64,000 bases of DNA. It comes from Candidatus Omnitrophota bacterium (lineage in GTDB: Bacteria; Acidobacteriota; Aminicenantia; UBA2199). The DNA lies in NCBI GenBank assembly GCA_050258455.1, contig JBLMYT010000061.1, forward strand, positions 41,049 through 105,048, read 5' to 3'. Positions 11,532-11,998 of this stretch are shown here, piece by piece. The translations under genes were made by a program, and so were the position numbers. The notes beneath the pieces were generated by a model. The model saw only the letters and a program-made list of their open reading frames with translations. It had not been told where the DNA came from and ran no database searches. Within the stretch, counting starts at the first letter, position 1. The number at the start of each line of letters is the position of its first letter.

Positions 11532-11998
11532 AGGAGCCAAGCATCATACAGAAGGAGACCAACTTTATGCAAAAGGAGCTAAACCTCATGCATAAAGAGT
11601 CCAATCTGTACCCAAAGGAGCCGCCCTTCATGCATAAGGAGCCGAACCTCGCGCGGAAGGAGACCCGTCTGTATGCAAAAGGAGTCGAACTTCGCGCATA
11701 AGGAGCCAAACTTTTGAAACAAGGAGACCAACCATTGAACATAAGGAGCCAAATTTTTGAAACAAGGAGACCAACCATTGAATAGAAGGAGCCAAATTTT
11801 TGAAACAAGGAGACCAACCATTGAATAGAAGGAGCCAAACTTTTGGAGCAAGGAGACCAATCATTGGATAGAAGGAGCCAAACTTTTGGAGCAAGGAGAT
11901 CAACCTCTGGTCAAAGGAGCCAAACTTTCAGGACAAGGAGACCAATCATGGTCAGCGGGAGACAAACCTTTGGAACAAGGAGACCAACTTCGGGTGAT
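11532..11998. repeat. Tandem array of 22 units, period 21-22 bp, each unit beginning (A)AGGAG
   Basis: AAGGAG (three units variant: AGGAG at 11532, AAAGAG at 11594, CGGGAG at 11956) at 11532, 11552, 11573, 11594, 11615, 11636, 11657, 11679, 11700, 11721, 11743, 11764, 11786, 11807, 11829, 11850, 11872, 11893, 11914, 11935, 11956 and 11977. The central part alternates two unit types, giving a 43-bp super-period. Flanked by direct copies of the composite repeat. Confidence 0.9.

Follow-up and report, generated by a model that had tools for sequence, protein, structure and literature searches.

What is the function of a long row of short direct repeats, most of them opening with the hexamer AAGGAG, that lies in the gap between two divergent transcription units of a bacterial chromosome? 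This question is raised by a 64,000-nucleotide stretch of Candidatus Omnitrophota bacterium DNA (GTDB lineage Aminicenantia; contig JBLMYT010000061.1, positions 41,049 to 105,048), referred to here as the window. The repeats form a tandem array of 22 units in a gap of 780 bp. Our analysis suggests that the array is a non-coding, DNA-level row of helically phased putative binding sites, a reading to which we assign a probability of about 0.42. Each 21 to 22 bp would present one short core (AAGGAG-N-C-N-AA-Y) as a putative recognition site, and because this spacing corresponds to two helical turns, all cores would lie on the same face of the helix. The array would occupy an untranscribed gap, with the promoter of a dhiTA-like toxin-antitoxin (TA) pair on its left and that of a DUF1703 AAA-ATPase/PD-(D/E)XK gene on its right. 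The best-supported account, drawn from comparison of sequences, is that Aminicenantes-type genomes contain a lineage-restricted class of such arrays, of which this is one.

A preliminary description of this DNA had reported 22 units with a period of 21 to 22 bp, and both Tandem Repeats Finder (TRF) and the positions of the unit starts bore this out. The array is laid out as follows (window coordinates).

11531..11998, + strand: whole tandem array, 22 units of 21 or 22 bp; core AAGGAG-N-C-N-AA-Y, then a variable tail of 9-10 nt
11531..11699, + strand: 5' block, eight diverged units (seven of 21 bp, one of 22 bp) in an old 63-bp three-unit order
11567-11701, + strand: 44-codon open reading frame (ORF) in the 5' block, formed by the first seven units and reading K-E-x-N-L-x-x
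11700..11892, + strand: central block, a 43-bp super-repeat of a 21-bp A unit and a 22-bp B unit, copies up to 97-100% identical
11893..11998, + strand: 3' block, five degenerate units (four of 21 bp, the last of 22 bp)

TRF called periods of 21, 43 (11700-11988, 6.8 copies, 87% matches) and 63 (11552-11711), and the 43-bp super-repeat previously reported for the center was confirmed as an alternation of A and B units. The near identity of the central copies marks this block as the youngest part of the array. Cut at the hexamers, seven units are 22 bp long and the remainder 21 bp. Exact AAGGAG was found at 19 positions in the array (11552 to 11977), all on the + strand, and three units carry a variant (TAGGAG at 11531, AAAGAG at 11594 and CGGGAG at 11956), so the statement that every unit starts with AAGGAG was too strong. 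The window as a whole contains 57 AAGGAG hexamers, compared with 25 +/- 5 in shuffled sequence; the array motif was found nowhere in the window outside the array. Palindromes had been attributed to most units. Arms of 5 bp are present in only three (11835, 11857 and 11878), and those of the central units measure merely 3-4 bp.

Other elements of the early description held. On either side of the array stands a copy of one hairpin element, in direct orientation (11445-11496 and 12008-12059, 92% identical), and stops occur in all six reading frames, leaving none consistently open. The array is not of the CRISPR (clustered regularly interspaced short palindromic repeats) type: instead of unique spacers it has variable tails that come back as types A and B, and its unit measures just 21-22 bp. 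No cas domains were detected in a Pfam scan of 38 window ORFs, comprising all non-nested ORFs of at least ~150 amino acids (aa) plus the DUF4160/DUF2442 pair described below. An assembly artefact is unlikely. The longest exact repeat inside the array is only 54 nt, which makes collapse or expansion improbable, and an independent short-read contig (Logan SRR24085925) is identical to the left flank up to 11497.

To assess constraint, we compared the 15 non-redundant units. Changes were found at 4/90 hexamer positions and at 89/225 positions elsewhere (Fisher 1e-11), so that the hexamer is conserved about 10 times better than the rest of the unit. Copies of the old 63-bp repeat, compared with one another independently of how the unit tails were aligned, gave corresponding values of 1/24 and 22/60 (p = 0.002). 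Conservation of this kind might reflect a decayed heptad-repeat protein gene, in which AAG-GAG would encode the Lys-Glu of K-E-P-N-[LF]-x-x and the frame would have been broken by frameshifts and stops. Indeed, all units read K-E-x-N-[FL]-x-x in one frame, and the first seven make up the 44-codon ORF. The frame is broken, however, by the seven 22-bp units and by in-frame TGA codons, and codon usage does not fit a protein: Lys is AAG in 20/21 units and Glu is GAG in 22/22, whereas window genes use AAA and GAA at 69% each, and the third positions of the remaining codons vary freely (Fisher 2e-5). Fixation against the codon bias indicates that the constraint acts on nucleotides, not amino acids. 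The AAGGAG hexamer is under nucleotide-level selection, and the window array is non-coding.

Protein searches gave one result that favors the heptad gene. The conceptual translation of the KE frame matched no Pfam family, and nothing in a word-indexed search of 5.8 billion proteins; a 123-aa reverse ORF had no match in a protein search, and no array ORF is on record in public assemblies. An exhaustive HMMER search with the 44-aa ORF product found P0003, a 192-aa predicted protein from a Joint Genome Institute (JGI) metagenome that contains 13-14 KE(P/Q)NL(F/L) heptads in an open frame and aligns with the KE-frame translation at E = 3e-25 and 41% identity. Judged by its sequence, P0003 is the translation of a homologous KEPNLF array, which places the AAGGAGCC-N-AAC array type in at least one other organism. 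Chance alone will leave several frames open where units repeat at exactly 21 nt, and on the combined evidence, including that of the related arrays below, we consider a decayed heptad gene very unlikely.

Some features of the units favor a role in RNA. AAGGAG is the host's own Shine-Dalgarno hexamer, located 5-8 nt before ATG in 6/37 window genes. An ATG or TTG follows the hexamer by 7-10 nt in 15/22 units (2.9 in tail shuffles), or in 8/15 non-redundant units (1.7 in tail shuffles, p < 0.001), and the central B units encode 16-codon ORFs whose stop lies 5 nt past the next start (TTGAATAG). With hexamer and start codon combined, the units resemble translation initiation regions. Two possible sources of the unit were rejected. 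Derivation from the tail of the right flanking hairpin was marginal (p = 0.02-0.07, uncorrected); similarity to the 5' end of the DUF1703 gene gave p = 0.01-0.04, but other gene starts scored equally or better, so the likeness is generic to initiation regions.

These features raise the possibility of an RNA array of translation-initiation-like modules, in which + strand RNA would load ribosomes on overlapping mini-ORFs or titrate 30S subunits. Such a transcript would be unstructured and purine rich, with two capping hairpins and about 20 perfect Shine-Dalgarno sites, most of them followed by ATG or TTG. The surroundings of the array include hairpins resembling repetitive extragenic palindromic (REP) elements and the following promoters and genes (MAG, metagenome-assembled genome).

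11446..11529, + strand: left flanking REP-like hairpin E1, 18-nt arms, -27.7 kcal/mol, z -3.7 versus shuffles
12009..12103, + strand: right flanking REP-like hairpin E2, -32.6 kcal/mol, z -5.4 versus shuffles
12117..12145, + strand: sigma-70-like promoter of the DUF1703 gene, TTGAAA-17-(TG)TATACT, motif kept upstream of homologues in Aminicenantes MAGs
12173..13897, + strand: DUF1703-family gene with AAA-ATPase_like and PDDEXK_9 domains
11401..11429, - strand: promoter-like TTGAAT-17-TAAAGT of the DUF4160/DUF2442 operon
10888..11394, - strand: DUF4160 (11137-11394) and DUF2442 (10888-11133), a dhiTA-type type II TA pair
14231-15508: AAA_14/DUF4143 protein, PADLOC candidate defence family PDC-S01 (E = 1e-139)

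The array itself folds no better than shuffled sequence on either strand (z -0.65 and -1.09) and lies between two strong hairpins, as expected for the modules. Mycobacterial interspersed repetitive unit-variable number tandem repeats (MIRU-VNTRs) offer a precedent for repeats with coupled ORFs (PMC12548453): these are likewise intergenic tandem repeats of tens of base pairs, whose units contain a small ORF and start/stop signals able to couple translation. MIRUs, however, lie between co-directional operon genes and are coupled to their start codons, whereas the array lies between divergent promoters; the two show no sequence relationship, and the array motif occupies a single locus in the window. 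The only strong promoter-like sites near the array point away from it, no promoter reading into it was predicted from sequence on either strand, even at 8/12 matches, and no terminator was predicted at the array. The + strand RNA would thus lack a promoter before the array and a terminator after it. In addition, the start codons come from only two or three independent unit types. We regard the modules as unlikely, though less so than the other rivals of the DNA-level reading, and return to them with the related arrays.

The preliminary description had also proposed a CsrB/RsmZ-type sponge RNA, whose 22 GGA motifs would sequester a CsrA-family protein. The count speaks for it: CsrB, CsrC and RsmX-Z pack about 20 GGA motifs into a stretch of a few hundred nucleotides, and the 22 in the 468 nt of the array equal the number in CsrB. 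Five units read ACAAGGA, and motAB is encoded in the window, making a CsrA/FliW circuit conceivable. Unlike the known sponges, the array does not present GGA in hairpin loops (unpaired probability 0.53, versus 0.47 for the rest of the array) and has neither its own promoter and terminator nor a covariance-model match; Rfam gave no match to the array at the gathering score and nothing relevant at E <= 10. Measured against the CsrA consensus from SELEX, RUACARGGAUGU with an ANGGAN hexaloop (PMC7652899), most units are off: the ACA-R-GGA part is matched only by those five, and no unit forms the AC/GU-closed hexaloop. A crude regular-expression search found no CsrA-like ORF in the window, and Csr RNAs lack such strictly regular spacing. 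The array thus lacks the testable features that define Csr/Rsm sponges beyond the GGA count, and the proposal is highly improbable.

We judge equally harshly the proposal that the - strand yields an anti-Shine-Dalgarno (CUCCUU) repeat RNA or, with its 43-nt unit, a type III TA-style antitoxin RNA for a neighboring toxin. There are 19 CUCCUU motifs on the - strand, and as in ToxI, CptI and TenpI a non-coding tandem repeat lies upstream of, and co-oriented with, a gene of a defence-like island; this gene has a nuclease domain, and the 43-nt super-unit falls in the ToxI-type size range. Nevertheless, no - strand promoter was found to the right of the array. No gene resembling ToxN, AbiQ, CptN or TenpN was found, the downstream gene being of the AAA-ATPase_like/PDDEXK_9 type, and the array has far more copies than type III repeats. 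In the ToxIN layout tandem repeats of about 34-45 nt are separated from the toxin gene by a terminator; here there is none, and a REP-like hairpin and a separate promoter beyond the array precede the gene. The left neighbor is a protein-protein type II pair, and a 90%-identical DUF1703 paralogue has no array at all.

Evidence of a different kind came from related loci. In the motif searches, an exact-pattern scan of 185,579 reference genomes returned 63 matches and no copy of the window array; the matches were mostly coding KE-type heptad repeats or 11-nt arrays and were discarded, as were matches in viral contigs, which were coding repeats only. A stricter array pattern had no matches in JGI metagenome contigs; in retrospect it was overly stringent, since the B-type unit would not be matched by the P0003 array. 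The reference scan also brought up unrelated arrays of a 22-nt unit (GCTGAAGGAGTCGAATGCGATA) in Segatella copri, Prevotella and Bacteroidaceae contigs (L012, L014, L019, L020, L023, L043, L049 and L050), with 5-10 exact AAGGAG per array and stops in every frame of the AAGGAG strand; the L012 array is intergenic and adjoins a 693-aa gene. Motif searches therefore found no relative and the protein-level search the one homologous array; analogous arrays turned up in sequence flanking DUF1703 homologues, the route by which all related loci were obtained. Nearly all of the closest homologues, at 64-73% identity, belong to Aminicenantes/Acidobacteriota MAGs. The sister arrays are as follows.

L172: 15 units, 21 bp each, with higher-order periods of 42 and 63 bp; core ATGTAA..TGGAA; located 221 bp upstream of DUF1703
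L287: 16 units, 14/15 spacings exactly 21 bp and the last 20; core ACCGGT invariant
L288 and L289 (orthologues): 13 and 10 units with exact 21-bp spacing; core CCTCAG
L180: two 3-unit 21-bp arrays upstream of an HTH_3 gene adjoining DUF1703

The larger of these have 10-16 units with a short invariant core and a fast-changing spacer, and all but the two L180 arrays show 42/63-bp higher-order periods. Wherever unit spacings were measured they were exactly 21 bp, apart from the last of L287. The arrays of L288 and L289 lie 75-100 bp upstream of an XRE helix-turn-helix (HTH) gene that precedes DUF1703. In L172 the array is followed by CCAGCAATACG (compare CCAGCAATTCG at 12009 of the window) and then by the same GATGTG-N-TATACT promoter. 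In 12 units of L287 the core forms the palindrome AACCGGTT; a promoter follows closely downstream of this array, and stops occur in every frame of the array. (Arrays of AACCGGTT with a 21-bp period in viral contigs were all coding heptads with identical units and were not assigned to this class.) All three sister loci scanned for promoters (L172, L287 and L288) have the array upstream of a sigma-70-like promoter, and the L288 array, like that of the window, lies between divergent promoters. Each sister core is confined to its own array, unit similarity between different loci was not significant at the best rotation, and loci with short upstream spacers have no array. The class thus shares its geometry (a period of 21 bp, higher-order periods of 42/63 bp, 10-22 units in the larger members and 6-14 nt of invariant core) and its location, next to a DUF1703 gene and upstream of a promoter; its sequence is not shared. 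The window array has these features too, differing in its seven 22-bp units.

The orthologous pair L288/L289 allowed selection on a sister array to be followed directly. The arrays differ by 28% and the adjoining promoter region by 10%. Over 265 columns there are no small indels and one whole-unit (21-bp) indel; core columns have 0-2 changes of 13, whereas spacer columns mostly have 4-7 (range 2-7). Substitutions show no 3-base periodicity (20/28/25 over codon phases, p = 0.37). This pattern indicates that the arrays are non-coding and that both the cores and the register are under selection. A fixed two-turn register is a requirement of cooperative binding to one face of DNA; an RNA decoy or a chain of start-stop ORFs needs none. 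Public gene calls of 82-83 aa without Pfam match lie wholly inside these arrays (L288 1613-1861 and L289 1603-1854, both - strand). Given the lack of codon periodicity, they are likely artefacts of stop-free units, and P0003 is probably one too. The same lack, with the stops of L287, speaks against the heptad gene.

For the translation-like modules, the sister arrays cut both ways. The units of L172 and L288/L289 also read GGA, 6-7 nt, ATG and TAA or TAG on one strand, as the modules would predict. On the other hand, the AACCGGTT core of L287 is not Shine-Dalgarno-like, the location between divergent promoters recurs at L288, and a total lack of small indels at 28% divergence is left unexplained.

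The same data bear on the idea that the array is a functionless minisatellite to which nothing binds, a 21-bp unit that slippage and unequal recombination multiplied within an island rich in repeats and quick to change. A near-identical center with degenerate edges and higher-order units is the usual pattern of satellite turnover, the surroundings are full of REP-like elements, and no DNA match was found in reference genomes, metagenome contigs, plasmids or phages. A neutral repeat would not be expected to conserve its hexamer about 10-fold better than the rest of the unit, to keep core and register between orthologous sister arrays or to show the same geometry at five independent loci, and we therefore consider the minisatellite quite unlikely.

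If the array acts as DNA, it might be a plasmid-type iteron or centromere, as the preliminary description had suggested. The parallels are close: the iterons of R6K, RK2 and P1 (21-22-bp period), F sopC (12 x 43 bp) and parC of R1 and pSK41 are tandem direct repeats with two-turn spacing, and the array has such repeats at 21 or 22 bp throughout together with its 43-bp super-unit. Both kinds combine a short conserved core with a variable remainder, in many copies facing one side and with array-specific specificity. With its 22 units, the array has more copies than any iteron set known to us. The plasmid context, however, is missing. The array is chromosomal, and no rep, parA/parB or sop gene was found among the 38 scanned ORFs of the 64-kb window; blastn against 72,556 plasmids and 50,697 phages gave no match. 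DnaA boxes were at chance level, and the array lacks the AT-rich unwinding region and the DnaA-box cluster of plasmid origins. Unlike sopC, the array does not have an inverted repeat in every unit. In contrast to plasmid elements, the array lies upstream of the promoters of defence-like genes in Aminicenantes-type genomes. These differences place it outside the iteron and centromere families. The comparison with iterons and sopC was thus not sustained, and the DNA-level part of the earlier suggestion was supported by the sister arrays.

Taken as a row of phased binding sites, the array would work through a sequence-specific protein that binds the cores cooperatively and regulates or marks the neighboring promoter or promoters. 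Candidate binders are an XRE-type HTH regulator, such as is encoded next to three sister arrays, and, in the window, the DhiA-like antitoxin, the DUF4143 protein and the DUF1703 protein itself. The array would have grown by slippage or unequal recombination, first with a 63-bp and later with a 43-bp higher-order unit, and the class would evolve by unit duplication and rapid spacer change, each array having its own short core. The identity of the window core with the Shine-Dalgarno hexamer would then be incidental.

Several observations weigh against phased DNA sites. The binding protein is a postulate, and the window array has no HTH gene next to it. The seven 22-bp units among those of 21 bp make its register looser than that of the sister arrays. 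The core matches the native Shine-Dalgarno hexamer exactly, the enrichment of start codons (15/22 versus 2.9) is left unexplained by DNA sites, and the GGA-ATG-stop reading of the L172 and L288/L289 units is a further difficulty. An array is absent from most DUF1703 copies, the 90%-identical paralogue at 15667 among them. All related loci were found via DUF1703, and the association with that gene and the rarity of such arrays elsewhere in these genomes are provisional. Finally, a consensus promoter scan is able to miss real promoters.

The array is surrounded by genes of a defence-type character. The region 6407-17400 encodes a NACHT/WD40 protein, the TA pair, the two DUF1703 genes and the AAA_14/DUF4143 protein, with a nonribosomal peptide synthetase (NRPS) gene on each side, and it looks like a defence-type island inserted between the two NRPS genes. 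The remaining window is ordinary chromosome (ssb, folE, surA, cinA and motAB). A DUF4160/DUF2442 pair homologous to that of the window is the dhiTA type II TA system of Dickeya (PMC8198452; PMC12065111), and the DUF1703 family is described in PMC6387759. Sequence searches of the PDB with DUF4160, DUF2442 and DUF1703 found nothing, and the DUF1703 gene product had no PADLOC match.

The family of E1 and E2 is dispersed, with three more copies, full or partial, elsewhere in the window (near 13890-14060, 15505-15580 and 17420-17620) and a reverse fragment at 10793-10810. The element is a mosaic (CCAGCAATTCGCATTCTG ... CACATCGAACACACGGG ... AAGATGCGAATTCCTGCTTGG), with a nested second element in some copies. 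Reference genomes gave chance matches only, and JGI metagenome contigs none. An interpretation of the hairpins as integron attC sites was rejected: the GTTRRRY core is inconsistent among copies, and the window encodes no integrase.

A promoter and leader (TTGCAAATC / TTGAAA ... (A)TG-N-TATACT ... GGTGAA ... ATG) are strongly conserved before DUF1703-family genes in Aminicenantes MAGs (window 12117-12145, 15590-15625 and 17636-17665; loci L169-L184 and L284-L289), and also precede the second NRPS gene of the window. Within the adenylation domains of the two NRPS genes, repeat blocks (3236-3587 and 22931-23165) leave the ORFs open. The first, between the LKD...LLL region and the LAYIIY core motif, comprises three copies of CACAGAGGA, an 81-bp tandem repeat (2.8 copies) with the REP-like GTAGGGGCGCACCCGTGTGTGCGCCC, and three copies of inverted TCCTCTGTG; the second gene has the same arrangement around 15-bp repeats. 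Both look like in-frame insertions of palindromic elements. In L284 (JAPKZK010000087.1, an Aminicenantes MAG), AMMECR1 and phosphoribosyltransferase genes adjoin the DUF1703 gene; in the window, a 950-aa ORF at 57205-60057 combines AMMECR1 and Pribosyltran matches. These shared neighbors lend weak support to a position of the window near Aminicenantes, which otherwise rests on the DUF1703 homologues; a search with CinA yielded only relatives of 38% identity or less.

Phased direct-repeat binding arrays are known as a kind from plasmids, and we found no description in the literature of arrays like these. What would be new is a chromosomal, promoter-upstream form whose geometry is conserved while its sequence is free, beside DUF1703 genes in Aminicenantes-type genomes. 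More speculatively, and with only a slim chance of being correct, the arrays may be the DNA part of a previously unrecognised two-part module of Aminicenantes defence-like islands. A hypervariable, phased row of 10-22 sites with a locus-specific core would be read by the DUF1703 nuclease or a partner HTH protein, and filament-like cooperative binding to one face could set an on/off switch, a self-mark or a nuclease decoy.

If the array is indeed a row of phased binding sites, plasmid iterons and centromeres would have a promoter-linked equivalent on the chromosomes of a never-cultured phylum, with array geometry conserved while the recognition sequence changes freely. A periodic Shine-Dalgarno look-alike could then arise as a by-product of a DNA motif. 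The arrays would also offer a handle on the function of the widespread DUF1703 (AAA-ATPase_like/PDDEXK_9) family, and would show how genes of defence-like islands are switched.

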